Shown here: positions 9,462 through 33,704 of the stretch, piece by piece
Numbering within the stretch: position 1 is the first letter of the stretch
How the letters are laid out: each line of letters begins with the position of its first letter
Source of the DNA: Cytophagales bacterium
GTDB taxonomy: Bacteria > Bacteroidota > Bacteroidia > Cytophagales > UBA9547
Assembly (NCBI GenBank): GCA_044357485.1
Contig: JBIKPL010000002.1
Location: 1 to 33,704 of the forward strand
Reading direction: 5' to 3'
Length of the DNA: 33,704 nt
Notes under the pieces: model-generated
What the model saw: only the letters and a program-made list of their open reading frames with translations
Databases searched by the model: none
What the model was told of the DNA's origin: nothing
Translations under genes and position numbers: made by a program

Positions 9462-9504
9462 TTTTAAGTTGTTAATCTTAATTGAATTGGGAATGCTAAA
9501 ATAA

Positions 9505-9741: not shown

Positions 9742-9841
9742 GTTATTTAGACTAATTAAGATTAGTGTGCAAGATAACAGCTATGTTACTAAGAAAAAAG
9801 CTTTTTAAGGAGAAAACATCAATGGGGATGGTCAATAATTT

Positions 9842-10957
9842 TTAAACCATTTGCTCATATAATTTTTCATACATAGGCATAATGTTGGAGACGTCAAAAA
9901 CATTGGCCTGCGCTAAAGCATTGGCTTTAAATGTAGGCAGGTTTTCATCTTTTAACACAAATAAGGCATTTTTTGCCATATCTTCTACGTCGCCAATATT
10001 ACTCATAAAACCAGTAACACCTTGAATGTTTACTTCAGGAATTCCACCGGCATTGGAAGAAATAACGGGAACTTCACAAGCCATGGCTTCTAAAGCGGCA
10101 AGTCCAAAACTTTCTTTTTCCGAAGGCAATAAAAACAAATCTCCTAAAGAGAGCACTTCTTCTACTGCTTCTTGTTTGCCTAAAAATCTAACATCCTCAC
10201 AAATCCCTAATTCTCTACACATTTGTTCCATGCGAGGTCGTTCGGGGCCATCGCCCATTAATAATAATTTACTGGGTAATTGTTGACGAACCTTTTGAAA
10301 AACAGCCAATACATCTTCAATGCGTTTTACAGCCCTGAAATTAGAGGTATGAATGAGTAGCTTTTCATTGTTGGGGCAAATGGCTTTTTTGAAATGGTCT
10401 TTTTTCTGTTTTTTAAATCTTTCTAAATCAATAAAATTTGGAATCACTTCAATGTCACGTGTAATTTTAAAATGGGCATAAGTATCTTTTTTTAAATCTT
10501 CAGAAACAGCAGTCACCACATCTGATTGATTGATACTAAAAGTCACCACAGGTTCATAGGTTTTATCTTTGCCCACAATGGTAATGTCTGTCCCATGCAA
10601 CGTGGTCATCACGGGAATATTGATGCCTTCTGTTTTGAGAATTTGTTTCGCCATATAGGCTGCAGAAGCATGAGGAATGGCGTAATGTACGTGTAAAATG
10701 TCTAAATTTTCGTATTTAACCACATCAACCATTTTACTTGCCAAAGCAAGTTCATAGGGAGGATATTCAAACAAAGGGTAGGAAGAAATATTTACCTCAT
10801 GGTAAAATAAGTTTTGGTCAAAAAAATCAAGTCGAGTAGGTTGACTGTACGTGATAAAATGAACTTGATGTCCATTTTTGGCCAGCGCTTTGCCGAGTTC
10901 TGTCGCTACAACACCACTACCACCAAAAGTGGGATAACAAACGATTCCTATTTTCAT
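9842..10957 (-). CDS. bshA: N-acetyl-alpha-D-glucosaminyl L-malate synthase (bacillithiol biosynthesis glycosyltransferase)
   Basis: 371 aa. From memory it is collinear with Bacillus BshA: KIGIVCYPTFGGSGVVATELGKALAKNGHQVHFIT, TLHGTDIT, HTSNFRAVKRIEDV, LLPSEKESFGLAALEAMACEVPVISSNAGGIPE. Confidence 0.85.
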   Translation of the reverse strand: MKIGIVCYPTFGGSGVVATELGKALAKNGHQVHFITYSQPTRLDFFDQNLFYHEVNISSYPLFEYPPYELALASKMVDVVKYENLDILHVHYAIPHASAAYMAKQILKTEGINIPVMTTLHGTDITIVGKDKTYEPVVTFSINQSDVVTAVSEDLKKDTYAHFKITRDIEVIPNFIDLERFKKQKKDHFKKAICPNNEKLLIHTSNFRAVKRIEDVLAVFQKVRQQLPSKLLLMGDGPERPRMEQMCRELGICEDVRFLGKQEAVEEVLSLGDLFLLPSEKESFGLAALEAMACEVPVISSNAGGIPEVNIQGVTGFMSNIGDVEDMAKNALFVLKDENLPTFKANALAQANVFDVSNIMPMYEKLYEQMV

Positions 10958-17869: not shown

Positions 17870-18856
17870 TTATTTATGTTCTTGTTTTAATCGCAATACC
17901 ATCATGTCGATGTATTTTTTAATGAGTTCTAAACACGCTGCTTTGTATATTTCTTCCTCAACAACGAGTTCATAAACTTTAGAAGCTTTTCCAAAATTAG
18001 CTTCCATTTCAGGAGATTTGTAAATAAACTTCATTTGTTTGAAGTATTTTCTTTCTATTCCTGCGGCTACTTTTTGGGTAAAATTGGCAAATTGTAAGGA
18101 AGGGTTAAAGAAATTAGCATTCATTGCTGAAACAAACAATTTTGGTTTACTGTCTAACAAGATCGTTGCAGGTGCTCCGGTGCTGTTGATATAGTCCCAT
18201 TTATTGGTCATCCCCCTTTGGGTCATGTATTCTAGAAAGTCAATGGTAATGTTGAAATCAACTAAATTGGTATTTAAGTCTTTCAACATTTTAGTGATTT
18301 TCGGGGTGTTTTGAGGGGAATTCAAAAATTGTAAAGTAGGATTGTTGCCTGCTGCAAATGATTTGGCATGGGTACTTCCTGTTAGTTTTACTTGGTTTTC
18401 AATTGGTGAACCAATGCATTTGTATTCTGTAGCATCAAGTGATACCAATACCATTCTTTTATAGGTATCATTTTGTTCGAATACATCTCTTGAAATAACA
18501 TTATACCCTAAACTGATTAATTGATTGATGTAATATTGATAGGCTTCGTTGGTAATTTGAAGGTAGGTTTTGTCTTTAATTCCTGAGAGTACTATGGCAT
18601 TATTGGCCAAGGTGGGTGGTACCGGGGTTTTTAATTTTGAGACGACTAAAGATGATTTGGTGATAAAATTTATTTGAAATGTTGGAATACAAATATTGTT
18701 TGTTTTCCAAGCTTCCGTAAGTTTGGTGTCTATCAACAATAATTTAGTGTCGTTTACTTTATCAAGGTTTTCAATTTTTACTTGGGCTATTGCACCATTT
18801 AAAGTCAAAATGATGGTGAAAAAGATTGGTAAGGCGATATTTTTGTAAAGGAACAT
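17870..18856 (-). CDS. Secreted hypothetical protein (328 aa)
   Basis: N-terminal signal peptide (IALPIFFTIILTLNGAIAQ). No domain recognised. It is co-directional with, and 55 nt downstream of, the pseudouridine synthase gene. Confidence 0.5.
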   Translation of the reverse strand: MFLYKNIALPIFFTIILTLNGAIAQVKIENLDKVNDTKLLLIDTKLTEAWKTNNICIPTFQINFITKSSLVVSKLKTPVPPTLANNAIVLSGIKDKTYLQITNEAYQYYINQLISLGYNVISRDVFEQNDTYKRMVLVSLDATEYKCIGSPIENQVKLTGSTHAKSFAAGNNPTLQFLNSPQNTPKITKMLKDLNTNLVDFNITIDFLEYMTQRGMTNKWDYINSTGAPATILLDSKPKLFVSAMNANFFNPSLQFANFTQKVAAGIERKYFKQMKFIYKSPEMEANFGKASKVYELVVEEEIYKAACLELIKKYIDMMVLRLKQEHK

Positions 18857-18911
18857 ATATTGCGATTAAATGTAGCAGCTTGTACGGACAAGTATTCTAA
18901 AAAGATGAGTA

Positions 18912-19508
18912 TTATTTTGCTTTTTGGGATACCCCTAATAATTTGTAAATATTAGGTTCATTGTATTCAACCACATCACCAGGTTGCATGCCTGTCATGA
19001 GGAGTTTTCCGATTTGAGTGCGCACAAGTCTTAAGGTTGGAAATCCAACAGAAGCCGTCATTTTACGCACTTGTCTATTTTTGCCTTCAACTAAAACCAA
19101 TTTAATCCAAGAAGTAGGAATATTTTTTCTAAAACGGATAGGAGGATTTCTTTCTGGTAATGTTGGGTCAACAGCTTCTTCTGCTTTTGCAGGAATAGTC
19201 TTGTATTTTACCCCATTCACATTAATTTCTGTACCTGTTTTTAATCTTGCCAAGGCTACGTCATTAACTTGTCCTTCCACTTGGGCCAAATAGGTGCGTT
19301 CGTGTTTTAATAAAGGGTCTAAAAGCCTGTTGTTAAGTCTTTTGTCATTCGTAATTACCAAAAGTCCTTCACTATCGGCATCTAATCTCCCTACTGGGTA
19401 CACGTCTTTAGGGAAGTCAAATAATTCTCCTAAAGTGGCGTGATCACCTTCTTTGGTAAATTGAGATAGCATGCCGAATGGCTTATATATGACGTAGTAT
19501 TTGAACAA
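18912..19508 (-). CDS. RluE/RsuA-family pseudouridine synthase (no S4 domain)
   Basis: 198 aa with YVIYKPFGMLSQF, the catalytic motif GRLDADSEGLLVITND and GKNRQVRKM. Confidence 0.85.
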   Translation of the reverse strand: MFKYYVIYKPFGMLSQFTKEGDHATLGELFDFPKDVYPVGRLDADSEGLLVITNDKRLNNRLLDPLLKHERTYLAQVEGQVNDVALARLKTGTEINVNGVKYKTIPAKAEEAVDPTLPERNPPIRFRKNIPTSWIKLVLVEGKNRQVRKMTASVGFPTLRLVRTQIGKLLMTGMQPGDVVEYNEPNIYKLLGVSQKAK

Positions 19509-19512
19509 AGTT

Positions 19513-20067
19513 TTATGTTTTGAGGGTTGTTTCGAGTGCTTTTTGTTGAGCTAAAGCGCGGTTTAATAAATATTCTTCGATAAAAGTTTCTAAAGGTTTT
19601 AACAACAAAGCCATGATAAGTTTGCCAAACATACTTGTCCAAAGTATGATGGTGCTGTATTGTATAAATGCGGTTTGTTTTGGATTACTAACGATGACTT
19701 GTTTGGCCACAGTTTCAATCACGGGATCAAGGATGCCTTCTGACAACACAAAAAGTACAACCGCTAAACCAAAGGTGATGGTTGCTGCTTTTTTACCTAT
19801 TTTTGCTTTGGTAAGCTCATCAATGGTTTCTTGTAATTCTACATTTTTATCAGCAAGAGCAGCATTGGCTGAGTTAAGTTTGTTTTGTAACTTATCACTT
19901 ACTTTGGTGATTAGTTTAGATTGGTCGAGCATTTCCTCATAGTGATCACAGAGGTTTTTATAGTCTCCTATAACCTCTTCCCTGGTTTTGGTGTCATCGG
20001 CAATAATGCTTCTGCTGTGTTCCAAAACAGTGATTTCGTGTTCAAAAAGTTGTTTTTTATTGCTCAT
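19513..20067 (-). CDS. Coiled-coil plus two-TM membrane protein occupying the SiaD position of a Sia-like operon
   Basis: 184 aa. Residues 1 to about 90 are charged and heptad-rich (YEEMLDQSKLITKVSDKLQNKLNSANAALADKNVELQETIDELTKAK). Two hydrophobic helices follow (ATITFGLAVVLFVLSEGIL and TAFIQYSTIILWTSMFGKLIMALLL). It lies 9 nt after the DUF1987 gene. Confidence 0.55.
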   Translation of the reverse strand: MSNKKQLFEHEITVLEHSRSIIADDTKTREEVIGDYKNLCDHYEEMLDQSKLITKVSDKLQNKLNSANAALADKNVELQETIDELTKAKIGKKAATITFGLAVVLFVLSEGILDPVIETVAKQVIVSNPKQTAFIQYSTIILWTSMFGKLIMALLLKPLETFIEEYLLNRALAQQKALETTLKT

Positions 20068-20076
20068 TTTTAGGGT

Positions 20077-20463
20077 TTAGTCTTCAGGTACTTCTATAAT
20101 CTCGAAAGGAATTTTTACGATATCACTATAGTCTTCCGCTGCTTCTTTCATATCGTCGTCATCTTCTTCGTAGTACCATTCCACTTTCACATCGGCACCT
20201 GATTTTTTAAGCTCTGCAAACTTTTTAAGTACATCTAAAATACATTTAGAAGAGCTGGTATTAAAATATTCAAATTTTAATTGTACGATTACAGGTATGG
20301 CAATAGCATCTGCAATTAATTGTATTAACCATTTGTTGATAGGGTCATAAAACTCTACAGAATTTTCCGGTGTTGATCTACCTTTAAATTCCATAATTCC
20401 AGTATTATGGTCTAGTTTTATGTAAGGGGTATGGTTTTTAGCTGGGAGTTCAAATATTTCCAT
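20077..20463 (-). CDS. DUF1987 / SiaC-like partner-switch protein
   Basis: 128 aa with TPYIKLDHNTGIMEFKGRSTPENSVEFYDPI and FEYFNTSSSK, plus an acidic C-terminus. This matches the DUF1987 pattern. Confidence 0.8.
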   Translation of the reverse strand: MEIFELPAKNHTPYIKLDHNTGIMEFKGRSTPENSVEFYDPINKWLIQLIADAIAIPVIVQLKFEYFNTSSSKCILDVLKKFAELKKSGADVKVEWYYEEDDDDMKEAAEDYSDIVKIPFEIIEVPED

Positions 20464-20488
20464 GTTGTATACGTCTATTGGTTTTCAA

Positions 20489-21079
20489 TTATTCTTCTTC
20501 CCCTTTATCAATTTTAGGGATATCAATTTGTAAACTAAAAAATTCAATTTCTTGGTTTACTTTCTGAAATTTATACTTCAGTTTTTGTCCCGACTTTCTC
20601 GCAATATCTATAAAGCCTAGGCCGCCACCGCCTTTTTCAGAAAATTGACCATTGTTAAGCGTACGTTTATAGAGTTCTCTGAGTTCGTCTTTAGAGATAG
20701 AATTTATTTCATCGATACGAAGTTTTAATCCTTCCACTTTTTCTATGGGCACGTAATTTCCTGTTACGACACTGTAGCCAGTCATATCGGTTTCAATAAT
20801 CAATAAAGCGGTTTTACTGTCATAGCCTGTTACTTCAAAATCGGTAGAATCAATGTGATTACACAAATTTTGAAGACATTCGACAAGAACATTGTATACT
20901 TTTTTCCTGGTTTTTCTGTCTTCTTCAATACGGTCTAATCGATCTTCAATAATCTTTAAAACCGAATTAACCAAATCAACAGTAACCTCCCCTTTAAAAG
21001 TAAGCATGATATTGTTTTCATGCATCCTTTCATACAAAGCAAGGTAATCTATCATAGCTGATTGCGACATTTTGTGCAA
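20489..21079 (-). CDS. SiaB-like GHKL serine/threonine protein kinase (anti-sigma-factor-kinase-like)
   Basis: 196 aa with an N-box-like ECLQNLCNH and a G-box-like KGGGGLGFIDIARKS. The size and position between the PP2C and DUF1987 genes match SiaB. Confidence 0.75.
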   Translation of the reverse strand: MHKMSQSAMIDYLALYERMHENNIMLTFKGEVTVDLVNSVLKIIEDRLDRIEEDRKTRKKVYNVLVECLQNLCNHIDSTDFEVTGYDSKTALLIIETDMTGYSVVTGNYVPIEKVEGLKLRIDEINSISKDELRELYKRTLNNGQFSEKGGGGLGFIDIARKSGQKLKYKFQKVNQEIEFFSLQIDIPKIDKGEEE

Positions 21080-21098
21080 TTAAAATTTGAATAAACTA

Positions 21099-22913
21099 TT
21101 ATATTTTAAAACCAATTACTAGAATATCATCTAGTTGTGGCTCCGAATCTCCCATCCATTCTGTGATTTCTTTGTCCAATAAGCGTTGTTGTTCGGCCAT
21201 GGGCAAAGTACAGATCTGCAATAATAATTCTTTAAAGCGTTTGTATAAGAATTTTTTACCTTTTGGTCCACCAAATTGGTCGGCATACCCATCGGTAAAG
21301 ATGTAATAGGTGTCGCCTTTCTGAATTTCAAAATCTAAATTGGTGTATTTTAAATCAGGATCTTCAGCATAATGACCTATAGGGAATTTGTTGGCTTTGA
21401 ATTCTTCTAATTCTCCGTTTCTGATACGGTAAAGAGGATTGAAAGCGCCAGCATATTGCAATAAATTTTTATTATAATTAATCCTACACAAGGTGATGTC
21501 CATGCCATCTTTTGAACCTTGGGCATCTTCTTGACCAACCCGCAAGGCTCTACTAACGCCTTCATTTAATTCGTCTAAAATGGCAGCAGAATCTGTTAAT
21601 ATATGATCGGTGACCGATCGGTTAAGAATATTATTACCAACCATCGACATCAATGCGCCTGGTACTCCATGGCCAGTACAATCTACTGCGGCAATAAATA
21701 AGTCTTCACCTTGTTCTTCGAACCAATAAAAATCGCCACTTACAATGTCTTTAGGTTTGTAAAGAAAAAACACATCAGGAATGTATTTTTTTACATAAGA
21801 AGTTGGTGGTAAAATAGATTGTTGAATTCTTAAAGCATATTTGATACTATCGGTAACATCATTGTATAAAATTTGAAGTTTTTCATTTTTTTCCTCAATG
21901 ACATCATTTTGCTTTTCGAGTTCTTCTTTTTGTTTAACAACCTCTTCAGTTCTTTCTTTTACTTTATTTTCGAGCATTTGCTCATTTTCAAATAAGTCGT
22001 CACGCATTTTTAACAATGCATGTCCGAGTGTATCTTGTTCACTTAAGGGTTGGTATTTGCCATCAAAATTCCCACTACCAATTTCTCTAGAAAAATCTGT
22101 GGTACTTTTTAAGCCATTTACCAGCTGATTCAAGGCCCCTGTCATGTCACCAATTTCATCCTGACGATGTTCAATTTCTTTTTCAGGAAGAATTCCTTTC
22201 CCCATTTTCAATAAAATTTGGCGTAAATTTTTGAGTGGGGGCACTATGGTTTTGGTCGTGAAAAAGGCAATGAGAAAGCCCATGATAATGAGCAGTATAC
22301 CCGCATTGATTACATAAGCCTGTAATAAGTCAAATGAACTGATCATCTGCACACTTTTATCGTGGGCCGAATCTCTGTGAATTTCATTAATGACAGACAA
22401 TTCATCCAAAATTTCACGGGTAAGTAAATCTACATTTCCTCCATCTAATTGAGGGCGAATGAAAAATATAATATTGGGGTCTTCGTATGTCGTAAAATCT
22501 TTTAATTGCACCATTATACCCCGGTACATTTGAAATAGACTATCTATTTTTACAAAAAGCTTGTTGACTTTTTCTTTTTCAACTGGATGCCAATAGACAG
22601 ATAAAGCTTCAATTTCTCTTCTTTTGTTTGGGTAATCCTGACTAATGAGTTTTCTTAAAATAAACTTGTCTTGGTTATCTGGGCCACTTTGAACAAACAC
22701 CCAGTTACTGATGTATTTTTGAGACCTTACCAATAGTAAATCTAAATCATCCAACGCTTCTGCCGATGGATTATAGACTTTGGTTACCTCATTGTTTAAG
22801 GTTCTGCTATTGTGTAGCGTAAGATAAGTAAGAACAAAATTTAGTATGGTAAAAAAGATAAATAACCCAAACCCTAACCAGATTTTTCTCCCAATGTTGA
22901 ACCTAAATTTCAT
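21099..22913 (-). CDS. Membrane sensor phosphatase: TM, periplasmic helical domain, TM, HAMP, coiled coil, SpoIIE/PP2C (SiaA-like)
   Basis: 604 aa. TM1 spans about residues 10-32 and TM2 about 200-222. The HAMP region reads PPLKNLRQILLKMGKG...DEIGDMTGALNQLV, and the coiled coil is NEQMLENKVKERTEEVVKQKEELEKQ. PP2C motifs are VSGDFYWF, DCTGHGVPGALMS, DGMDITL and FTDGYADQ. Confidence 0.85.
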   Translation of the reverse strand: MKFRFNIGRKIWLGFGLFIFFTILNFVLTYLTLHNSRTLNNEVTKVYNPSAEALDDLDLLLVRSQKYISNWVFVQSGPDNQDKFILRKLISQDYPNKRREIEALSVYWHPVEKEKVNKLFVKIDSLFQMYRGIMVQLKDFTTYEDPNIIFFIRPQLDGGNVDLLTREILDELSVINEIHRDSAHDKSVQMISSFDLLQAYVINAGILLIIMGFLIAFFTTKTIVPPLKNLRQILLKMGKGILPEKEIEHRQDEIGDMTGALNQLVNGLKSTTDFSREIGSGNFDGKYQPLSEQDTLGHALLKMRDDLFENEQMLENKVKERTEEVVKQKEELEKQNDVIEEKNEKLQILYNDVTDSIKYALRIQQSILPPTSYVKKYIPDVFFLYKPKDIVSGDFYWFEEQGEDLFIAAVDCTGHGVPGALMSMVGNNILNRSVTDHILTDSAAILDELNEGVSRALRVGQEDAQGSKDGMDITLCRINYNKNLLQYAGAFNPLYRIRNGELEEFKANKFPIGHYAEDPDLKYTNLDFEIQKGDTYYIFTDGYADQFGGPKGKKFLYKRFKELLLQICTLPMAEQQRLLDKEITEWMGDSEPQLDDILVIGFKI

Positions 22914-24094
22914 TTCTTAAGATTTTCAAGTTCGGTTTTAAATTGATTTGATTTGTCTAAATCATTCAATCCAAAATAAATACCTGAAAGCATTTCAAGC
23001 ACATTCTTGTTTTTAGGCTCTAATTCGTATGCTTTTAAAGCAAATGGTAGTGCTTTCTTAAACAAGTCAACACACTCATCTTGTATTTGCGCCAAGGTGG
23101 TAAAGTCGATATTATAATTTTGTTTATTGATGATATCTACTGCTTGGTTATAATAGATAATACCCAAACTATAATTTGCTGTGGTATTGTTTGCATTAAT
23201 GGTTAGGATTTGCAAATATGATTTTTCCGCATTATGCAAATGTGATCTTTTATTGATACTGTCATTCACCGCCAGTTTTTCATATACTTGAGATAGCAAT
23301 AAATGATAATCTAAATTTGTAGGTTCAGTTCTTATGGCTTGATGTAGCGATAAAATTAATAAGGTAATATTGTTTGTTTGGCTATAATAGCGTACCCTTA
23401 GTTGTTCTATTTCTTTGTTATCGTTGTATTTTTCTGTCGCCAATAAAACCACATTATCTGCTTGTTTGATATTGTTGGTGGCTAAATAATCATCTGAAAG
23501 GATAACATACAACAACGGGTCGTTGTAGGCATATTGCATCGCTAAATCAAGGTAATGAATGGCCTCTGGTATGTCACCATTTCTATGGGCAGCATAACCC
23601 GCGTAATAAATACTTGCGGTATCTATGGCATTGCTGATTAAATGATAATTGCTTAAATAAAATTTAAAGTAGTTAAACGAATTTTTGTAGTCTTCTTTGT
23701 TTAATGTATTAACCGCATCAGTTTTAATGGTTGAAAGCAGGTACTTAGTGATGTTTTTGCAATCATTGGTATACTTGTTTTCTTTGTCAAGACCAATACA
23801 TTTGTTGATGTAATTCAGGGCATTTTGACGGTAAGTCATGCCTCCAGTTGCGGCATCTTTTCTTTTGTATAATTCTTTATTAATAAAGCCATTGTAATAC
23901 CAAGCCTTTGGATCGTTGCTTACGTCTTCTGCAGTCAATGCCAATTCAATGGCTTGTTTTGCCTTTTCAAAATCACTCTCTTTTAATGCTTGCTCAGCCT
24001 CTGCAAGTTTAGTTTGTTGTGCATACGCACCACCAACTACACCTATGCAAGTGAATAAAGTCAGAAGAACAATATGTACAAACTTATTTATCAT
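22910..24094 (-). CDS. Secreted TPR-repeat protein
   Basis: 394 aa with a signal peptide (LLTLFTCIGVVGGAYAQ) and repeated A..Y/N..G..Y TPR-like helices. ATGA overlaps occur at both ends (24091-24094 and 22910-22913). Confidence 0.7.
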   Translation of the reverse strand: MINKFVHIVLLTLFTCIGVVGGAYAQQTKLAEAEQALKESDFEKAKQAIELALTAEDVSNDPKAWYYNGFINKELYKRKDAATGGMTYRQNALNYINKCIGLDKENKYTNDCKNITKYLLSTIKTDAVNTLNKEDYKNSFNYFKFYLSNYHLISNAIDTASIYYAGYAAHRNGDIPEAIHYLDLAMQYAYNDPLLYVILSDDYLATNNIKQADNVVLLATEKYNDNKEIEQLRVRYYSQTNNITLLILSLHQAIRTEPTNLDYHLLLSQVYEKLAVNDSINKRSHLHNAEKSYLQILTINANNTTANYSLGIIYYNQAVDIINKQNYNIDFTTLAQIQDECVDLFKKALPFALKAYELEPKNKNVLEMLSGIYFGLNDLDKSNQFKTELENLKK

Positions 24095-24621
24095 TTTTCG
24101 TCTAATATGGCCATGTTTACTAAACTAGAGCTCACAGTTAAGCCAGATCGTTCAGCATTTGATTTACTTAATTCAAATTTTTGTTTATTTTCTTGGTAAA
24201 CAAAGTTGATGACAGCCCCTTTTTTAATTAAACCTGCATTTTCTCCTATCACCAAGGTATTGTTTTTAGCAATTTTTTGTGCTGCCGCTGTTATAGAAGT
24301 GCTTTTTTCGGCCGTAATAAACAGCAATTGGCATTTTCCAATTTCCTCTACGTTGTTATATACTTTTACAATAAAGCTTCTTGTTCCTATTTTGCTCAAA
24401 GCGGCCATTTTCTCTAGTTCTTTGATCAGGTTAGGATTATTATTTCCCAATACCCCTATCACAAAGTCTCCTTGTTTTTGATTTTCGGGCCACTCTATGT
24501 ATTTGGTAAAATTATAGATAAAGATGGCTTTGATTTTAGAGTTTACATCCTGCGCACATACGTCTAGCAAGCTTACGTAAAGTAAGGCGGTTGCAATGCA
24601 TATGTAGCGAAGGTAGAACAT
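24091..24621 (-). CDS. YfiR / DUF4154-family periplasmic protein
   Basis: 176 aa with a signal peptide, then KIKAIFIYNFTKYIEWP...VIGVLG...LLFI, the characteristic DUF4154 (YfiR) opening motif. Confidence 0.75.
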   Translation of the reverse strand: MFYLRYICIATALLYVSLLDVCAQDVNSKIKAIFIYNFTKYIEWPENQKQGDFVIGVLGNNNPNLIKELEKMAALSKIGTRSFIVKVYNNVEEIGKCQLLFITAEKSTSITAAAQKIAKNNTLVIGENAGLIKKGAVINFVYQENKQKFELSKSNAERSGLTVSSSLVNMAILDEK

Positions 24622-24696
24622 GAGTTGGTTAAACTTTTTTGAATATATTTATACGATTGCCTTAAAATTATTGAATTTTATGCAATAATCACAAAT

Positions 24697-27189
24697 TTAT
24701 TCGTCTAAATCAATCACATTATTTTCATCGACTTGTACTTTTTGCTGTTTTTTCCATTCTTCGTCAAGATTTCTTTTCTTAAATAAATTTTTTATTTCAG
24801 TCGATTCAACCTTTAATCTTTCCTTTATTTTTTCCTTAACTGCCTTAGTATCATAGCTTATTTTAATGTTTGGTGGGGTTCCTTGTATTTTTAAAAACAA
24901 GGTAGTACCACCATCTTTTTCGTCTTGCAAGGCATTTTCCTCTTCACTTGTATTTTTCTTTTTAAAATTCTTCAACGACACTTTTAATTTGTAATTCATG
25001 GCATTGTCAAAAGTATGTGTGCCCGAAATGCCAATGGTATTTAAGTTTGATTTTATCACCATTTCTGGAATGGTGACCAATTTGTTTTCAATATGGATGC
25101 TGTTTTTAATTTCTTTAAATTTAATATTCCTTAACTCCACGGCATCGACAAATTTCGACAGTTTTTGCATGGGTTCAAAATTGAGCAGTTGTCCGTTTAC
25201 CAAACTTACATTTACATCAGCTTTCACTGATTGTGGGTTAATTTGAAGGTTTTTATTAAACGCCATTTCTAAATCTATGGAAGTAGTTAGCCGTCCTCTT
25301 AAATTTTGATGGGTAATGAAATTTTGATCAAAATTTTCGAACATATAAAAAACACTGTCTACTATAATGTTGTTGAAGGCTGTTTGTGCTTGTAACTGCA
25401 TTTTTTCTACATTATTGGTATTGAGATTGGCATTGAGGCTAATGCTGCCGCCAGCTATGGTAAAGGAGGTGTTTCTAGTGGATACAATTTTGTCGTTCAG
25501 TTTTAGTTCTCCTTGAATGTTTCCGGTATTAAATTTCCTGAATTTAAGTTTTCCTATATTACAATTTAAATCAAGCGTTAAGCGGGGAGAAATAGCAAAT
25601 TTATAATTTGAAGTATCTTTGTCTGATTGTTTGCTATTGGCTAATAATTCATCTAGATCAACCAATACAGATTTGCAATGCGCATCAATGACAATTTTTT
25701 CTTCTTTAAAAAACAAAAATGGAAATACATTCTTAAACAAGCCATCCAATGCAAAATCAGTATTCCCAATTTTACCGCTAAATTGATTGATAGACACATC
25801 GTTTTTATTGAATAAGAAATTAGCTTTAAAATCACTAAACACATAGGGTTTAGCGCTTACTTTAAAATCAAGTGCATGCACGGTAATTTCTCCATTGGTA
25901 TGGATGTTTTTTTTGCCTTCCGTTGTTTTTAAATCTGCTAGTTTACCATTAAAAGCAAGGTTTATACTCATTTCACCTTTGGCATATTCAAGCCCTTTGA
26001 TAGGGTAAAAGGCAATGATAGAAGCGATATTTAAATCAGCATTGAGGTCAAAACTGATGTCTGGGTTACTAAAGTTTGTAATTTTAAACTCCCCACTGAT
26101 TTTACGATTGTCTAAATAACTTTCTAAATCCGAAATTTCGAGACTGTTTTGTAGCGCCGTACTATTAAATGTACCTTTAAACGAAGTTTTGGTAAGTTCT
26201 TTTTTAATGGATGGATGGTAAAAAGAGGCATGCTGACAACCAAATAATACCTCTATGTCGGGCTGATTACCGTTAGCAATTTCTCCTGCAACAGTTCCTT
26301 TAAAATACACATCTCCTTTGCTTTTGTACACACTTATTTTGTCGTAAATGTCTTTGGATAGCAAGGAGAGGATGGTTTGGATATTGGTATTGATGCCTTC
26401 TAGCGAAAGGTCAATAGAGGGTTTATTGCCAGCTTTAAGGGTGCCACTCACCAAAAATTCAGATTTTTCGACCAACACACTTGTTGGTTTAATTGTTAAT
26501 AATTTCTTTGCTGTCGAAAATACCAAAGCACTTTTTAAATCAATATTTTTGTTTTTAAAGTATATTTTCTCTGCTACATTTATTTTATGCACGGTTAAAT
26601 TTCCATCTACAGCAATGGCTATTTCTTTGGGCGAATATTTTAAGTTAGCACTTGTGAAGTGTGCATAAAGTTGAACCGTATTGTTTTTTTGTTCATTCGC
26701 ATATTGTATTTCGACCTCTTCGAGGATAATTTTTTTAAGATCAAAATTCACTTTCTTTTTACTTTTGCTGGCATCAGGTTTTATGATTTCATAATTGGGT
26801 ATGCCTTCTTTATTTAGCCTAATATGCGCATTTCCTTTTGAAATATATACTTTGTGCAGTTTATATTGCCCGTTAATCATGTCCCAAATGTCAAAGGTGA
26901 AATATATTCTATGGGCTTTTAGTAAATAATTTTTGCTGTTTTTATACGATTCGTTGATGACGATATCGTCAAAACGAATGGCTACTTGTGGGAATTTTTC
27001 AAAGGCGGAGAAAGATATTTTTTTTACTGCTACTTTGGTTTGTAGGTGTTTATTTGCTTCCGATACAAAATGTTGAATAATTTTATCTTGGTATAGATAC
27101 GTCAATCCTACTGCTGTAGTCGCAAATAGTACTACAACAATAAATAGCCCAAAAAGCACTCGCTTGATGTATTTAAAGAGTTTCTCCAT
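24697..27189 (-). CDS. AsmA-family envelope protein
   Basis: 830 aa with a single N-terminal TM anchor (VLFGLFIVVVLFATTAVGLTYLY), a long beta-rich repetitive body and a lysine-rich C-terminus. The layout is typical of AsmA-like proteins. Confidence 0.65.
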   Translation of the reverse strand: MEKLFKYIKRVLFGLFIVVVLFATTAVGLTYLYQDKIIQHFVSEANKHLQTKVAVKKISFSAFEKFPQVAIRFDDIVINESYKNSKNYLLKAHRIYFTFDIWDMINGQYKLHKVYISKGNAHIRLNKEGIPNYEIIKPDASKSKKKVNFDLKKIILEEVEIQYANEQKNNTVQLYAHFTSANLKYSPKEIAIAVDGNLTVHKINVAEKIYFKNKNIDLKSALVFSTAKKLLTIKPTSVLVEKSEFLVSGTLKAGNKPSIDLSLEGINTNIQTILSLLSKDIYDKISVYKSKGDVYFKGTVAGEIANGNQPDIEVLFGCQHASFYHPSIKKELTKTSFKGTFNSTALQNSLEISDLESYLDNRKISGEFKITNFSNPDISFDLNADLNIASIIAFYPIKGLEYAKGEMSINLAFNGKLADLKTTEGKKNIHTNGEITVHALDFKVSAKPYVFSDFKANFLFNKNDVSINQFSGKIGNTDFALDGLFKNVFPFLFFKEEKIVIDAHCKSVLVDLDELLANSKQSDKDTSNYKFAISPRLTLDLNCNIGKLKFRKFNTGNIQGELKLNDKIVSTRNTSFTIAGGSISLNANLNTNNVEKMQLQAQTAFNNIIVDSVFYMFENFDQNFITHQNLRGRLTTSIDLEMAFNKNLQINPQSVKADVNVSLVNGQLLNFEPMQKLSKFVDAVELRNIKFKEIKNSIHIENKLVTIPEMVIKSNLNTIGISGTHTFDNAMNYKLKVSLKNFKKKNTSEEENALQDEKDGGTTLFLKIQGTPPNIKISYDTKAVKEKIKERLKVESTEIKNLFKKRNLDEEWKKQQKVQVDENNVIDLDE

Positions 27190-27417
27190 AATTTGAGCTA
27201 AAAATATAGGTTTAAAATGAAGTTTCTTAACATTACTTGAAGTTTTTCTTTAGCATACAGTGTTATTTACACGGAATATCAAGTGTTTAGGTTTTGTTTT
27301 ATCCTTTATTTTTTATTTTAATTATCTTTTATCGTCTGTGATAATGTGATTTGAACACTGTCTTTTGTGTCGTTCGCCTAGAATTTATCTTTTATTCTTT
27401 TGCCCAAACCAAATACT

Positions 27418-27506
27418 TTGTACCTTGTACTCTGTACCTTGTACTCTGTACCTTGTACTCTGTACCTTGTACCTTGTACCCTGTCCTACTACTTAACACT
27501 TAACAC
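27418..27506 (+). repeat. Tandem heptanucleotide array ending exactly at the murQ ATG
   Basis: In phase: TTGTACC TTGTACT CTGTACC TTGTACT CTGTACC TTGTACT CTGTACC TTGTACC TTGTACC CTGTCCT ACTACTT AACACTT AACAC, then the ATG at 27507. Confidence 0.9.
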
Positions 27507-28322
27507 ATGAATACCACCGAATCTTCCTCCTCTTATAAAAATTTGGAGCAAATGAGTACTGTTGATTTACTACATAATATTAATAAAGAGGATCAATCTG
27601 TGCCTAAAGCTGTGGAGAAGGTAATTCCTGCCATTGAAAAAGTAGTGGATGAAGTGGCTAAAAGACTTGCCAATGGAGGCAGGTTATTTTATATCGGCGC
27701 AGGTACCAGTGGCAGGTTAGGGGTAGTCGATGCCTCTGAATGTCCTCCTACTTTTGGGGTACCTCACGATTTGGTAATTGGCATTATCGCTGGTGGAGAT
27801 ACTGCCATTCGAAAAGCAGTTGAGTTTGCTGAAGATGATATTGCCCAAGCGTGGGTAGATTTAGGCGCTAAAAATATTAGTCCAAAAGACGCCCTTATCG
27901 GCATTGCGGCTTCAGGTCGTACCCCTTATGTGTTGGGTGGTATTAATACAGCCAAAGCCAATGGCATTTATACGGCTTGTATTTGTTGTAATGCGGGATC
28001 TGTAATTGGTCAAGCGGTGGATGATGCCATCGAAGTAGTGGTTGGTCCCGAGTTTGTAACTGGTAGTACGCGCATGAAATCAGGCACAGCACAAAAATTA
28101 GTGCTCAATATGATTTCTACGGCCGTAATGATTAAGTTAGGGAAAGTAAAAGGCAACAAAATGGTCGACATGCAATTGAGCAACCTCAAATTGGTTGATC
28201 GTGCCAAACGTATGGTGATGGATGAAATACCGGTTACTTACGAAGAAGCTTCAGAGTTGCTCGAAAAAAATGGAAGCGTAAGAAATGCGGTAGATGCTTG
28301 GCGAAATGATGCAAATAAGTGA
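27507..28322 (+). CDS. murQ: N-acetylmuramic acid 6-phosphate etherase
   Basis: 271-aa SIS-domain protein with [62 protein letters not shown] and GNKMVDMQ. Confidence 0.92.
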
Positions 28323-28549: not shown

Positions 28550-31500
28550 ATGAAAAAAGTTTTACAAAAAATTAACCACAGTTCCCTAATTGCCTTTTTA
28601 GTTATTGCTATTTCTTTTTGTTCAATGGATGTATTTGGGCAATGTAGCGCTGTTCCTGTAAAAGAAGCAGTAAGAAATGGTGATTTTGAAGCCGGTTATA
28701 TTGCTAACGATTTTAAATCTGATAATATTTATGCAGGACCTTATATTAAATCAAAATTAGATGTTAACCAATGCCATTATGCTACTGGTGACAAATATTA
28801 TATAAGTGATTTTCAAGAAGTTTATAAATGTGAAGGTGTTACAAAACAAGGAACATCTTTTAGCCCTGATTTAGGTACAGTTGGAAAAGGAGGATCTTCA
28901 GACAAAATTTTATACGTGGATCCCAAAGCGGCTATAGATCCATTATTTTGGGAACAAACGGTTTCAGTTACGCCTGGTCAGTTGTATTACTTCTCGTTTT
29001 GGAACACATTAATTTTAGGTCCTGCCATTAATTATGATGTTTATATTAATGGTGTAAAAATTACATTAAATCCTGGTAATGCTGTTTCTTTTAGCGCTAC
29101 CGTATCTAGGAAAGTATTTGATGCAAATGGTAAAGTTGTTCAATATGTTTCATTAGATCCAAATGGAGATCCATATGTTGATAGTAAAGGAGATCCAATT
29201 ATGTTAGATAAAGTTACCACAACAGCTGTTCCTATAACATGGACGCAATTATACGGTACTTGGAATTCAGGAACAAATACTTCCGTTAAAGTTCAAATTA
29301 AAGGACAAGGTTCCATTCCTCAATCAGGTGCTGATATTGCTTTAGATGATATTTCTTTTAAAAATGATTGTTCAGGAATTGTTGCTCAAAATCCAACGCT
29401 TCCAGATTTAGGCGATGATGTTAATTTTTGTTCCACAAATGGTACATTAATTTTAGATTCAAAATTGGCTGTTGCACCGAATTTAAAATATTATTGGTAT
29501 AAAACTAATACTTCAACAGGCACAGAAACACAGATTGCTGCTGCTACTGCCAATAAATTAAATATAGTAAATGCTGATTTACTTACGCCCGACACTTATG
29601 TGAGGGTTTGTGTTGAAGATAATTTAAAATCTTGTTCCTCGGCTTCCGATCAGATCAAAATCTCCAAATTTTTAACTGCTACTTTAGATAATGAAGTATT
29701 ATGTTCACCACCTATTGCCACATTAAAGCCTGTTGTTGAGCCTTATGATCCTTTGGTTTCTTATACAAAAACTTATACATGGAGTAATACGGCAGGTGAA
29801 GTAGTGAGCACAACGGCATCGCAATCTGCATCAAAGGCTGGTAATTATTCTGTGACGGTATCTAATCCAAATGTTCCTGGTTGTGCTGCTACTGCCACTT
29901 CAACGGTTACTTCAAAATTACCAACTGCCCCTACGAATTTAACCTATTGCGAGGATGGTGGTGTGGCTACGAATTTAACCGTAGGTGATGGTAAAAAGTA
30001 CAATTGGTATAAAGATGCTGCTAAAACAGCCTTACTTACTGTAACCAATAATGGTACCGTTACAACTTCTTGGGTGCCTCTTGTTGGAACAACTGGTGAC
30101 CAAACCTTATATATATCTAGTAATGAAACAAGTCCAATAGCAGGCAGTATAGGGCCGGCATCTCCAGGAGCAAGCTATCCTGCAGCAGGAAGTGGTGATG
30201 TAATTACCTTAACAGTAACGCAAGCAGTAGAATTAACTTCCTTTGTGGTTTCTGGTGCTACTTGGGTTGCTGGTTGCTCTGGTGCTGGTTCCACAAATTC
30301 ATCACTATTTACCATTAAAAATGGTGCAACAGTCATCGCTTCTAAATCTGTAACGATAAACTGCGGTAGCGCTACTACCGTTAATTTTGGTGTGTCTTTA
30401 CAACCAGGTACCTATACCCTTAATGCCACCGCTGGTGCATTTTATTTTGGTGCAATGTCAGGTACTTTGTCAAACACTAGCCTAACGATATCAGGAACGA
30501 ATACTGTTTTTGCTAATATTATTACTGCAAGTGCTTCGGCATGTGATCCAATGCCTGTAATTGTTAAAGCGGTGTCTTGTTGCGTTAAACCTGATATCAC
30601 CACACAACCAGCATCAGTTTCGAAATGTGAGGGTGCTTCAACTTCCTTTACGGTTGCAGCGACAGGCGCTACCTTGACTTACCAATGGCAAATTGAATCT
30701 GCTACACCGGGTACGTTTACTGATTTGACGAATACGGGTGTTTATACCAATGTTACAACGGCCACGATGAACATTTCGAATGTTACGGGTTTAACAGGTA
30801 AAAAATACCAGGTAATTGTTAAAACAAACGGTACTTGCCCTGCTACTTCAAGTGCAGCGACTTTAACGGTTAACCCAACCCCAGCTACACCAACCATTAC
30901 CTCTAGTTTAACACCGAATACGTCTTTTGCGTATTGTGCAGGTACGAATATGGCCTTAACAGCAGCAACGACTACACCGGGTACGGCCACATGGTCTTGG
31001 GTAACCAAACAAGGAACGTCTACTACGGCTACCAATACTGCCAACAAAACAAGCATTACCTCTTCAGAGGCAGGTTTATATGAAGTAACGGCAACGATTA
31101 ACAGTTGTGTAAGTGCAAAAGGTTCAGCAACGGTAGCGGTAACGGCATTGCCAGTTGCAACGGTAGCAGCCACACAATCGATATGCTCAGGAGTGCCGAT
31201 GGCAGCGACTACTGTTTCTTTAAATCCTACTACGGCTAAGTTTGATTGGAATACGACGACTACGGCTCCTACAGGTGCTGCTACAGGAGCGAGCCCAACG
31301 TCAGGTACGGCAGTAGCCCATCTTACGGATTTGGCACAAAGCACTTTACAGGTTCCTAATGGTACAGGTTCTGGTACCTATACGTTTACGATTACGCCAA
31401 AAGACGGCGCTTGTACAGGTACAGCCGTAACACATGTGGTGACCGTGAAAGCCAAACCAGCCAAACCAGTACCTACCAACGATGGCCCCTATTGCGAGAC

Positions 31501-33703
31501 TAAAAATATTACTTTAAAAGCTAATGTTGCCCCTGCTTTAGCCGCAAGCTGGAACTGGACTTTTGGCAGTTCTTTAACTTCTATTAGTGCACTACAAGAC
31601 CCAACACCATTTGCCGCTACTTCAGCCAGCAGTGGTTATTACCATGTATCTGTTACCAATACCAATGGTTGTGTAAGTGATACAGGCACCACGAAAGTAG
31701 TGGTGAATACGGTACCAGGCTTGCCATCGGTAGCTATCTTTAATTTTTGTGAAGATACGCTTACTGCGCCAAGCTTATCGGCTACGGTAACGCCATCTTC
31801 AGGATATACCTTAACTTGGTATGGCCAAAATGCTACAGGTGGAACCGGGAGTACAACCGCTTCCGTAGTTGATGTGACGACAGCAGGTCAGTTTACGTAT
31901 TATGTGACCCAAAAATCGGCTACTTGTGAAAGTGCACGTGCACCTATTACCGTAAACATTAAAGCCAGACCAGTTTTTACAGCCACAGGTTCTCCTGCAT
32001 GCAAAGGCACATTGGGCACCATTAATTTTAACACCACAGGTGGCGGAGGTACTTATACGTATTCTTGGACAGCAACTGCCAATCCTGCCATATCATCGGG
32101 AGTGGTTAATTCTACCGGCTACCAATCGGTAACAGCAATTACCCAAACGCTAGACTTGGTAGACCAATCTAATACGGCAGTGCTTACCAAACAAGTGTAT
32201 ACGGTTATGGTACACGATGCAAATGGTTGTACGGCAAAAGATACGGCTAATATCGTGGTAAACCCTTGTCCTTATAACCCAGATTTTAGTTTATCAAAAG
32301 ATACGGCTTGTCTAAAAGCCAATGCCGCTACAGTAACGATTACCCCCAAAGCAATAGGCGCCACAAGCTGGACTTGGGATTTTGGACTAGCCTCAGATTA
32401 TACGACTACACAAGCTTTAACAGACGATGGCACCAATGGTACAGCGATGAATGCGAATAGTATTCCGGCACCAACACCATTTGATGTGGTCTATAAAACG
32501 GCAGGTATTAAGAAAATTACGCTCTCCGTAAAAGGCCCTGGTTCGATTACACCTATTACCAAAGACGTGTTTTTTACCGTTGGTGCAGTGCCAGTGGTAA
32601 CGGTAACAGGCAATAGCCCTATTTGTAGCAATACTAAAACGGCGATTTCCCTTAGCTCCGATATTACAGGTGCTACTTTTGCTTGGGTAAGCCCTATCGC
32701 TACCCCAACGGCAGGAGATGTTACAGGAGCATCTGCAAGTACAGGTACCCCAACAACGATTGCACAAACCTTACAAAATACGACATCAGGCTCAATACCT
32801 GCTAACCTTACCTATAAAGTAATTGCTACCAGCCCTTCCCCTAACTTTTGTAAAAGTGCTGGCACAGATGTAGTGGTAAAAGTGAACCCAATTCCAGTAT
32901 TGAGCGCTACCAATGGTGGCCCTTTATGTGATAAAAAAACAGCACAAGATGCCATAACAGCAATTGCGACGACCGTGTCAGGAAGTGCCATTACATGGAC
33001 TTCAACTTCAAGTATTGCCACAGGCGCAGCAGGAGCAGGAACGGTAGGGGCTTCAGGTATCATCAACGAAGCATTACATACCACCAATGTGCAAGGCAAA
33101 GTGAGCTATACCTTGATTGCTACTTCTACCGATAATTGTAAAGACACTTTAGGCCCTATTGATGTGCTTGTAAATGCTACCCCAAAAGTAACACCAACCG
33201 ATGATAGCATTGGGGTGTGTAGCGGTACAGCGATTTCAGGATTGACCTTGGCTTCTAGCGTTAGCGGTGCCACTATCAACTGGACAGCTGCGTTGACAAG
33301 TGGTACGGTTACCGGATTTTCTCCTGGCCTACAAACAAGCGCAAGCATTACCGATAATTTAGCAAGCTCAGGTGTGGTTACCTATACCATTAACGCGACC
33401 AATACCAATGGTAGTTGTACCGGTCCTGATACTACCGTGGTAGTGAGCGTAAGCCCTCGTCCAGTACTTACGCTTGGAAGTGATGTTACGATTTGTAGCA
33501 GCACAGGCCCAGGCATTGCCATTAGCAGTGATATTTTAACCACCTTAAGCTGGACGGTGAAATCGTCTACCGGAGGTGTTACCCAAATTGCAGGTGCAAG
33601 CAGCAGTGTGCCACTAGCAGGAGGCACATCGGCCAATACCAACGCTACAACCATCAATACGAAATTGGTCACCAAAGACAAAGCCGTAGCCGATGGAGGT
33701 ACC
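28550..33703 (+). CDS. Giant cell-surface repeat protein (signal peptide, beta-sandwich N-domain, many Ig-like / PKD-like modules); C-terminus lies beyond the window
   Basis: The frame is open from the ATG at 28550 to the window end (1718 codons). It is absent from the track because it has no stop. Signal peptide: MKKVLQKINHSSLIAFLVIAISFCSMDVFGQ. It contains CHU_C-associated-type Ig modules (C..G....Y.WY), one classical PKD module (WTWDFG...YKTAGIKKITLSV) and PKD-like modules (ICS......ISLSS...GATF.W). Confidence 0.85.
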   Translation, partial: MKKVLQKINHSSLIAFLVIAISFCSMDVFGQCSAVPVKEAVRNGDFEAGYIANDFKSDNIYAGPYIKSKLDVNQCHYATGDKYYISDFQEVYKCEGVTKQGTSFSPDLGTVGKGGSSDKILYVDPKAAIDPLFWEQTVSVTPGQLYYFSFWNTLILGPAINYDVYINGVKITLNPGNAVSFSATVSRKVFDANGKVVQYVSLDPNGDPYVDSKGDPIMLDKVTTTAVPITWTQLYGTWNSGTNTSVKVQIKGQGSIPQSGADIALDDISFKNDCSGIVAQNPTLPDLGDDVNFCSTNGTLILDSKLAVAPNLKYYWYKTNTSTGTETQIAAATANKLNIVNADLLTPDTYVRVCVEDNLKSCSSASDQIKISKFLTATLDNEVLCSPPIATLKPVVEPYDPLVSYTKTYTWSNTAGEVVSTTASQSASKAGNYSVTVSNPNVPGCAATATSTVTSKLPTAPTNLTYCEDGGVATNLTVGDGKKYNWYKDAAKTALLTVTNNGTVTTSWVPLVGTTGDQTLYISSNETSPIAGSIGPASPGASYPAAGSGDVITLTVTQAVELTSFVVSGATWVAGCSGAGSTNSSLFTIKNGATVIASKSVTINCGSATTVNFGVSLQPGTYTLNATAGAFYFGAMSGTLSNTSLTISGTNTVFANIITASASACDPMPVIVKAVSCCVKPDITTQPASVSKCEGASTSFTVAATGATLTYQWQIESATPGTFTDLTNTGVYTNVTTATMNISNVTGLTGKKYQVIVKTNGTCPATSSAATLTVNPTPATPTITSSLTPNTSFAYCAGTNMALTAATTTPGTATWSWVTKQGTSTTATNTANKTSITSSEAGLYEVTATINSCVSAKGSATVAVTALPVATVAATQSICSGVPMAATTVSLNPTTAKFDWNTTTTAPTGAATGASPTSGTAVAHLTDLAQSTLQVPNGTGSGTYTFTITPKDGACTGTAVTHVVTVKAKPAKPVPTNDGPYCETKNITLKANVAPALAASWNWTFGSSLTSISALQDPTPFAATSASSGYYHVSVTNTNGCVSDTGTTKVVVNTVPGLPSVAIFNFCEDTLTAPSLSATVTPSSGYTLTWYGQNATGGTGSTTASVVDVTTAGQFTYYVTQKSATCESARAPITVNIKARPVFTATGSPACKGTLGTINFNTTGGGGTYTYSWTATANPAISSGVVNSTGYQSVTAITQTLDLVDQSNTAVLTKQVYTVMVHDANGCTAKDTANIVVNPCPYNPDFSLSKDTACLKANAATVTITPKAIGATSWTWDFGLASDYTTTQALTDDGTNGTAMNANSIPAPTPFDVVYKTAGIKKITLSVKGPGSITPITKDVFFTVGAVPVVTVTGNSPICSNTKTAISLSSDITGATFAWVSPIATPTAGDVTGASASTGTPTTIAQTLQNTTSGSIPANLTYKVIATSPSPNFCKSAGTDVVVKVNPIPVLSATNGGPLCDKKTAQDAITAIATTVSGSAITWTSTSSIATGAAGAGTVGASGIINEALHTTNVQGKVSYTLIATSTDNCKDTLGPIDVLVNATPKVTPTDDSIGVCSGTAISGLTLASSVSGATINWTAALTSGTVTGFSPGLQTSASITDNLASSGVVTYTINATNTNGSCTGPDTTVVVSVSPRPVLTLGSDVTICSSTGPGIAISSDILTTLSWTVKSSTGGVTQIAGASSSVPLAGGTSANTNATTINTKLVTKDKAVADGGT

Positions 33704-33704
33704 G

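Follow-up and report, generated by a model that had tools for sequence, protein, structure and literature searches.

A SiaABC-type phospho-switch operon of Cytophagales with a YfiR-like periplasmic protein and a two-transmembrane candidate output protein

We analyzed a cluster of six minus-strand open reading frames (ORF1 to ORF6, Table 1) in a 33,704-nt stretch of contig JBIKPL010000002.1 from a Cytophagales bacterium (GenBank assembly GCA_044357485.1; the whole stretch is called the window below). The cluster encodes a YfiR-like periplasmic protein, a TPR protein, a SiaA-like sensor phosphatase, a SiaB-family kinase, a SiaC-family phosphoprotein and a two-transmembrane (TM) protein, ORF6. 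The six genes very probably constitute one SiaABC-type signaling unit. From linkage and fusion patterns ORF6 appears to be the direct target of SiaC and the output of the switch, a reading to which we assign a probability of roughly 0.55. ORF6 occupies the position of the siaD gene. It has a helical arm like SiaD and, where SiaD has its GGDEF domain, a membrane hairpin.

Results

Linkage and fusion of ORF6 with SiaC

One genome per species was scanned with an alignment of ORF6 homologs. The resulting 80 loci were annotated with hidden Markov models (HMMs) built iteratively for each window protein. In 47 of the 57 species-level loci with a short standalone ORF6 homolog, the gene directly upstream on the same strand encodes SiaC, at a median distance of 8 nt (range -8 to 132). 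The two are fused in one further locus (L064). The complete six-gene order is found in 18 of the 57 and in two more that are cut by contig ends, and the flanking genes vary between lineages. Loci L001, L005 and L099 also show this order. Complete Cytophagales chromosomes with the operon include OZ245737.1, OZ254083.1 and OZ254081.1. SiaB-SiaC-ORF6 linkage is kept with an alternative phosphatase of about 1000 amino acids (aa) and dCache-HAMP-GAF-PP2C layout (L003, L031). The same three genes stand alone, with no phosphatase front end, in L024 and L051, next to genes for threonine dehydratase or a peptide transporter. Besides SiaC+ORF6, neighboring components are fused as PP2C+SiaB (L054, L055) and SiaB+SiaC (L031, L036, L039).

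The C-terminal ~100 residues of ORF6, here termed the module, are also found in longer relatives. Pfam scans place it C-terminal to SiaC, receiver (REC), REC-PAS, PAS, GAF and TPR domains. The module is always C-terminal, with a median of one residue after it. Fusions of SiaC to the module fall into seven separate 50%-identity clusters, and one such fusion lies directly behind a SiaB gene. The phospho-acceptor Thr/Ser is kept in six of the seven fused SiaC domains. One divergent fusion (P0281, 299 aa) carries Glu at the phospho-acceptor site and has a weak SiaC score of 35 bits; its SiaC domain may be a constitutive "phospho-mimic" or degenerate.

Just upstream of the module, the helix motif SD[KR]LQ[NK][KR]L is present in 93 of 162 standalone and six of seven SiaC-fused representatives and in none of the 32 that are fused to REC, PAS, GAF or TPR domains. 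This distribution is what would be expected if the motif were a docking or coupling element specific to SiaC.

The PP2C+SiaB fusion protein is about 620 aa long (L054:7633-9492 and L055:7726-9603) and comes from a metagenome-assembled genome (MAG) labelled Kapaibacterium and a chromosome labelled only "metagenome". The SiaB+SiaC fusion (about 320 aa, at about 9025-9993) is found in three other MAGs. An ORF6 homolog lies downstream of the fused gene in all five loci. Operon-carrying contigs L009, L011, L035 and L048 sit in MAGs labelled Bifidobacterium breve, Bifidobacteriaceae, Hyphobacterium and Thalassovita; these bins are probably mislabelled or contaminated.

The ORF6 module

ORF6 belongs to no Pfam, NCBIfam or PADLOC family. 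The module is absent from Pfam-A, NCBIfam, PADLOC and PDB sequences, and a profile search of ORF6 against PDB sequences returned nothing below E = 0.1. ORF6 has 68 close homologs, and an HMM search of 1.84 billion representatives gave 563 matches at E < 1e-3, 244 of them at E < 1e-10. Hydropathy predicts two TM segments (Table 1). The AlphaFold2 (AF2) model is all-helical (residues 3-23, 29-127 and 132-183; predicted local distance difference test (pLDDT) 73). Foldseek comparison of this model with the PDB gave shape matches only (E > 3; ATP synthase c subunits and coiled coils), which were rejected, and PHROGs gave weak coiled-coil matches outside the module.

Across 211 representatives of all architectures, ten positions are at least 90% conserved: N75, L78, L85, A94, L105, F106, E110, K149, P158 and E164. 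ORF6 is a typical member, with a juxtamembrane helix of the pattern N..L..T.D.L followed by a two-TM hairpin that carries F106, E110, K149 and P158. The spacing of 3 to 4 residues between N, L, I and L fits a parallel coiled coil entering TM1. Glu110 and Lys149 would lie within the two hydrophobic segments at similar depth.

Module fusions with other input domains occur in other Bacteroidota and in Gemmatimonadota. Cytoplasmic TPR arrays of about 470 aa ahead of the module account for 23 of the 80 genome loci and are found in Saprospiraceae, Chitinophagales and Gemmatimonadaceae. When a REC-module protein was used as the query, ordinary receiver domains dominated the matches, and only one further REC-module protein was gained. 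A wider reading, in which the module is a new family of membrane-embedded signaling output domains in Bacteroidota and Gemmatimonadota, is tentative and in our judgment falls somewhat short of even odds. As a dimeric unit of helix and hairpin that buries a Glu/Lys pair, the module would act directly in the inner membrane. It would open a gated path for ions, perturb the membrane or engage a membrane machine in the manner of a clutch. It would serve four kinds of input: the SiaABC-type switch, receivers, PAS/GAF domains and TPR arrays.

An anti-phage defense system with a TM effector was also considered and rejected: PADLOC gave no meaningful defense-system match for any of the six proteins, and the flanking genes are housekeeping genes.

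Several observations weigh against ORF6 as the output of the switch. Loci selected by ORF6 cannot give the frequency at which SiaC is paired with ORF6, and a second sample of 80 loci was chosen via SiaC in a metagenome scan. SiaB precedes SiaC nearly everywhere in this sample, and ORF6 lies downstream in only 1 of the 68 loci with room for it. One Bacteroidia clade makes up most of the sample (median SiaC identity 75%), and in it the synteny methyltransferase > SiaB > SiaC < TerB-ABC transporter is kept. ORF6 is not a universal neighbor of Bacteroidota SiaBC and is so mainly in Cytophagales-type lineages; outside these, either the components are scattered or the target differs. Nine of the 57 loci have a standalone ORF6 with no SiaC nearby. 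The neighborhoods of REC- and GAF-module proteins hold housekeeping genes and offer no functional clue. Searches detected no family or solved structure similar to the module, so any activity ascribed to it is a guess, and the conserved hairpin could be a specific docking anchor instead of an effector.

In an alternative reading, ORF6 is a mere membrane tether or scaffold which holds SiaC or SiaB-SiaC near the phosphatase while the true output is encoded elsewhere. We consider this unlikely. SiaB-SiaC pairs without ORF6 or any adjacent target are common in the clade described above, so SiaC can work with unlinked partners; the front-end genes likewise occur without SiaB, SiaC and ORF6, and the module has no enzyme-like feature. 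A generic anchor, however, would not be expected to keep N75, L78, L85, F106, E110, K149 and P158 across SiaC, REC, PAS, GAF and TPR proteins. PAS-module and GAF-module proteins have no second domain able to carry a signal, and ORF6 follows SiaC even where no membrane phosphatase adjoins. The initial annotation had listed ORF6 as the 184-aa protein that completes the set. Its presence and two TM segments stand, but coupling to SiaC and the fusions make it the best output candidate rather than a mere accessory.

A protein of about 1030 aa (TerB-like N-terminus, ABC ATPase and ABC-2 membrane domain) is encoded convergently to SiaB-SiaC in 53 of the 80 SiaC-selected loci; L100:1006-4101 (minus strand) is an example from the L100-L178 set. 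A protein of this type also adjoins SiaA-SiaB-SiaC-ORF6 in L037 (7052-10153), and others lie near orphan ORF6 genes in Raineya (L058:3397-6408, L061:3453-6464). The association could be plain synteny or a functional link.

SiaA-like, SiaB-like and SiaC proteins

ORF3 is predicted by Pfam and hydropathy to consist of TM1, a periplasmic domain, TM2, HAMP, a coiled coil and a SpoIIE/PP2C domain. It aligns to the PP2C structure of Pseudomonas aeruginosa SiaA (6k4e, E = 1e-41) and keeps the metal-binding motifs GDFY, DCTGHG, TDGYAD (TDGxxD) and DD. The NCBIfam SiaA model gives 240 bits against a cut-off of 700, and the match spans residues 266-604 only. Since the score is under the cut-off and the N-terminal half is unmatched, ORF3 is not a SiaA ortholog.

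ORF4 matches PF19788 (DUF6272, E = 1e-38) and aligns to P. aeruginosa SiaB (6kko_A, E = 4.5e-11). Its score of 155.4 bits against NCBIfam SiaB_fam_kinase is above the cut-off of 85, and its 89 bits against the equivalog kinase_SiaB are below the cut-off of 225. ORF5 matches PF09345 (SiaC) with 133 bits and the NCBIfam SiaC equivalog with 90.9 bits (cut-off 150). It aligns to P. aeruginosa SiaC (6kko_C and 7e6g, E = 1e-16) with its NTSS sequence on the T68 site, and the acceptor Thr is kept in 56 of 58 homologs, fusions included. The SiaA/SiaB/SiaC-like switch named in the initial annotation was thus found with its catalytic, G-box and phospho-acceptor features all present, and the profile searches (Pfam and NCBIfam) agree with all of the domain calls on the six proteins. 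By homology, ORF4 is predicted to phosphorylate SiaC Thr69 and the PP2C domain of ORF3 to dephosphorylate it.

Absence of a cyclic di-GMP enzyme at the locus

A GGDEF HMM built from nine PF00990 proteins had no match in the window, in about 1.4 Mb covering 87 related ORF6 loci (within about 10 kb of each) or in the 80 SiaC-selected loci. The proposal that no cyclic di-GMP (c-di-GMP) enzyme serves as the local output is borne out, and the absence of GGDEF from the 87 related loci excludes loss of a GGDEF gene in the window alone.

The pathway might still act through c-di-GMP or a sigma factor, like its counterparts in Pseudomonas and the Rsb systems, with an unlinked target and ORF6 in a side role. 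The P. aeruginosa switch does control a cyclase, SiaD, and our GGDEF scan covered only the window and the sampled loci. The negative scans nonetheless make this distinctly improbable, as do the siaD position of ORF6, which is even fused to SiaC, and the sparseness of c-di-GMP enzymes in Bacteroidota.

Literature searches turned up no paper on this arrangement, in line with the earlier view that it had not been characterized. They found SiaABCD work only in Pseudomonas and returned no paper on DUF6272, on a pairing of DUF4154 with PP2C sensors or on membrane hairpins as outputs. The "SiaC" of a Flavobacterium paper is a sialidase and was set aside as unrelated.

Periplasmic front end

ORF1 matches Pfam PF13689 (DUF4154/YfiR-like, E = 1e-34). 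Its score of 114.6 bits against NCBIfam NF053591 (TOL_0243 family YfiR-like periplasmic protein) is under the curated cut-off of 125, which makes it a close relative and not a member of that family; the YfiR equivalog model gives 22 bits (cut-off 85). The top PDB matches of its AF2 model (pLDDT 86) in Foldseek are P. aeruginosa YfiR structures 4zhu, 4xjy and 4yna (E of about 1e-6, template modeling score 0.7 to 0.79). The YfiR-like assignment therefore holds at fold level and by Pfam profile. As phmmer against the PDB retrieved no YfiR, the kinship is visible only by these two routes.

ORF1 and ORF2 have signal-peptide-like N-termini by hydropathy. ORF2 matches TPR_19 (E = 6e-6), and its homologs come after the YfiR-like gene in every canonical locus. 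Their signal peptides are of the signal peptidase I type and end in AxA-Q, and the Cys in the signal peptide of the window protein is not conserved. Without a conserved lipobox Cys, ORF2 is not a YfiB-like lipoprotein. The initial annotation had described the locus as a merger of Sia and Yfi parts. The SiaABC-type switch and the YfiR-like protein support this, but YfiR is the only component shared with YfiBNR, and a YfiB-type lipoprotein is missing from the cluster.

The TM segments of ORF3 (aa 11-29 and 201-219 by hydropathy) enclose about 165 periplasmic residues. This domain matches no Pfam family (best match 4HB_MCP_1, E = 0.034) and has no detectable similarity to known domains. It is found together with the YfiR-like and TPR proteins in every canonical locus, and this triad occurs alone, without SiaB, SiaC or ORF6, in other Bacteroidota (L088, L089). 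At L090:8001-11773, two YfiR-like paralogs surround a 158-aa gene of no assigned role and are followed by a protein whose periplasmic domain and HAMP are of the window type but whose cytoplasmic part is GAF-PAS instead of PP2C. Since the pairing is kept there, the YfiR-like protein tracks the periplasmic domain and not the cytoplasmic output, and the front end has been reused with a different cytoplasmic part. The co-occurrence fits a contact of the YfiR/YfiN type, without proving it. Together these patterns suggest an envelope-sensing input in which the YfiR-like and TPR proteins would tune the phosphatase.

The presence of this front end also speaks against ORF6 as an input, with a hairpin that senses a membrane property and relays it to SiaC or SiaB. 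Some kinases sense membrane state through TM helices, and ORF6 is a membrane protein with conserved intramembrane charged residues. Yet ORF3, with its large periplasmic domain, already gives the operon a dedicated sensor. The module, moreover, is always C-terminal and in REC-module proteins follows the phospho-receiver, which is the output position of response regulators. We regard an input role as highly improbable.

Operon layout and neighboring genes

The coordinates of the six packed ORFs (24621-19513) are exactly those first reported. Direct reading of the sequence confirmed the ATGA start/stop overlaps at 24091-24094 and 22910-22913, and the gaps of 19, 25 and 9 nt between the other ORFs follow from the coordinates. 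Adjacency by chance or shared ancestry, without joint function, is extremely improbable and is dismissed, although consensus promoter and terminator scans were uninformative. Eighteen species-level loci with differing flanks preserve the gene order and its close packing (4-nt overlaps, gaps of 9-25 nt), and component pairs (PP2C+SiaB, SiaB+SiaC, SiaC+ORF6) are fused. Scans for sigma-70 promoters and intrinsic terminators over 18500-27600, which are ill-suited to Bacteroidota, gave chance-level counts. The Bacteroidota -7 motif TAnnTTTG had 66 matches in the window (54.5 expected), with one plausible site before ORF1. As the motif is not enriched over chance, the box TAAATTTG is only a candidate.

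Table 1. Features of the six-gene cluster and adjacent sequence (window coordinates)
Feature	Position	Strand	Remarks
ORF1, YfiR-like	24091-24621	minus	176 aa (ORF list)
ORF2, TPR protein	22910-24094	minus	394 aa (ORF list)
ORF3, SiaA-like sensor phosphatase	21099-22913	minus	604 aa (ORF list)
ORF4, SiaB-family kinase	20489-21079	minus	196 aa, TTG start (ORF list)
ORF4 E..QN motif	20867-20881	minus	sequence motif
ORF4 G-box GGGGLG	20615-20632	minus	conserved motif
ORF5, SiaC-family phosphoprotein	20077-20463	minus	128 aa (ORF list)
Predicted phospho-Thr69 codon of ORF5	20257-20259	minus	by alignment to the T68 phosphosite of P. aeruginosa SiaC
ORF6	19513-20067	minus	184 aa (ORF list)
ORF6 helix motif SDKLQNKL, aa 57-64	19876..19899	minus	just upstream of the module; invariant in ORF6 alignment A1
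ORF6 C-terminal module, aa 66-184	19516..19872	minus	juxtamembrane helix, TM hairpin and tail
ORF6 TM1, aa 95-113	19729-19785	minus	hydropathy
ORF6 TM2, aa 138-156	19600-19656	minus	hydropathy; short outside loop between TM1 and TM2
RluE-like pseudouridine synthase	18912-19508	minus	TTG start 4 nt past the ORF6 stop
Candidate Bacteroidota-type -7 box TAAATTTG	24692..24699	minus	pattern match, about 70 nt upstream of ORF1, weak

The window is near-identical to a contig (L008) of the river-water MAG Bacteroidota bacterium NASQAN2011_458_B_bin.12, with 97% identity in ORF6. The operon is flanked by unrelated housekeeping genes, upstream one for an AsmA-like protein of 830 aa and downstream one for the RluE-like pseudouridine synthase; farther out are genes for a MurQ-like SIS protein, a DNA-alkylation repair protein and an aldose epimerase. 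The AsmA-like gene and a giant adhesin gene had been taken as a speculative hint of an envelope or surface role. Their synteny is limited to the three closest relatives (L008-L010), so the hint was dropped and the two genes were rejected as functional partners.

The RluE-like gene may be co-transcribed with ORF6, as only 4 nt separate them. It follows ORF6 directly only in L008-L010; in L012, L013, L015 and L017 a match to the window RluE-like protein is instead encoded upstream of the YfiR-like gene, at a distance of about 1 kb. The AsmA-like protein (24697-27189, minus strand) has one N-terminal TM segment, no Pfam family above threshold and a weak C-terminal GspN-like match below the cut-off (E = 3.5e-5). 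The gene at 17870-18856 (minus strand) encodes a 328-aa protein with a signal-peptide-like N-terminus and no Pfam family. A giant secreted protein of at least 1718 aa is encoded at 28550-33704 (plus strand) and runs past the window end. It has a signal peptide, many Thr/Ser-rich Ig-like repeats and one weak CHU_C-associated Ig_7 match, and the G+C content of its region (0.43-0.47) is well over the window average of about 0.35.

Discussion

In P. aeruginosa, unphosphorylated SiaC binds the N-terminal stalk helix of SiaD, which is encoded next to SiaC, and it was proposed that DUF1987 proteins generally modulate adjacent proteins (PMC8457831). We propose a pathway of this kind for the window operon. 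The periplasmic YfiR-like protein and the soluble TPR protein would act on the periplasmic domain of the SiaA-like sensor, and the signal would cross HAMP and the coiled coil to set the activity of the PP2C phosphatase. The SiaB-like kinase would phosphorylate SiaC at Thr69 and the phosphatase would strip the phosphate. Unphosphorylated SiaC would then bind the cytoplasmic helical arm of ORF6, at the segment with SDKLQNKL, and alter the state of the C-terminal module. The module is probably a dimeric juxtamembrane helix that runs into the two-TM hairpin with intramembrane Glu110 and Lys149. It would work in the inner membrane either through an activity of its own, such as conducting ions or perturbing the membrane, or by taking hold of another membrane protein; its function in these terms is speculative. 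In related bacteria, receiver, PAS, GAF and TPR inputs may likewise act through this module as their C-terminal output. The proposed pathway has no c-di-GMP step.

The closest known system is SiaABCD of P. aeruginosa (PA0172-PA0169), where a membrane HAMP-PP2C phosphatase, a SiaB-family kinase, a DUF1987/SiaC protein and a fourth protein that begins with a helical arm are encoded in the same order. The window proteins share its phospho-Thr, its kinase G-box and the metal-binding motifs of its PP2C domain. Unlike SiaD, the fourth window protein has no GGDEF domain and joins its helical arm to a two-TM hairpin. The window locus also adds two periplasmic proteins upstream. The periplasmic domain of its sensor is unrelated to the SiaA one, because the match to the NCBIfam SiaA model is confined to the region given above. 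With no cyclase output, and with the SiaA, SiaB and SiaC equivalog scores all below their cut-offs, the locus is not a strict SiaABCD member.

YfiBNR (TpbB/DgcN) is similar in that a secreted protein of the DUF4154/YfiR fold goes with a two-TM HAMP sensor and tracks its periplasmic domain. The output of the window sensor is PP2C, not GGDEF as in YfiN, and a soluble periplasmic TPR protein is encoded in the cluster instead of a YfiB-type OmpA/Pal-like lipoprotein. The RsbU/RsbV/RsbW and HsbR/HsbA/HsbD systems likewise set a PP2C phosphatase against a GHKL-type kinase on a small STAS-like phosphoprotein that changes partners. The window has DUF1987 rather than a canonical STAS protein, and the partner proposed here is a membrane-hairpin protein, not a sigma factor or cyclase. 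As in response regulators and one-component proteins, the module sits where output domains sit, C-terminal to REC, PAS and GAF; in contrast to theirs, it is a membrane hairpin of about 100 residues that includes neither a DNA-binding nor an enzymatic domain.

Work on SiaABC-type switches and YfiR repressors has so far treated them only as regulators of c-di-GMP synthesis, in Pseudomonas and relatives. In the window locus both appear to be wired to something else, in a phylum with poorly known signaling outputs. The operon unites modules that are scattered elsewhere (the YfiR-TPR-phosphatase triad, SiaB-SiaC and the hairpin protein) and so allows predictions of which component signals to which. 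It also reveals an undescribed, unannotated membrane module that, in response regulators and in PAS and GAF sensors, takes the place of the output domain and could form a new class of such domains if an activity is demonstrated. If the module is an effector, it would be a new kind of output for bacterial signal transduction, and DUF1987/SiaC proteins would gain a second, testable class of target. Flexithrix dorotheae DSM 6795 and Raineya orbicola are cultured carriers. If the new output-domain reading is true, the window operon would be the first complete pathway that leads from a YfiR-type envelope sensor to an effector of this sort without a second messenger.

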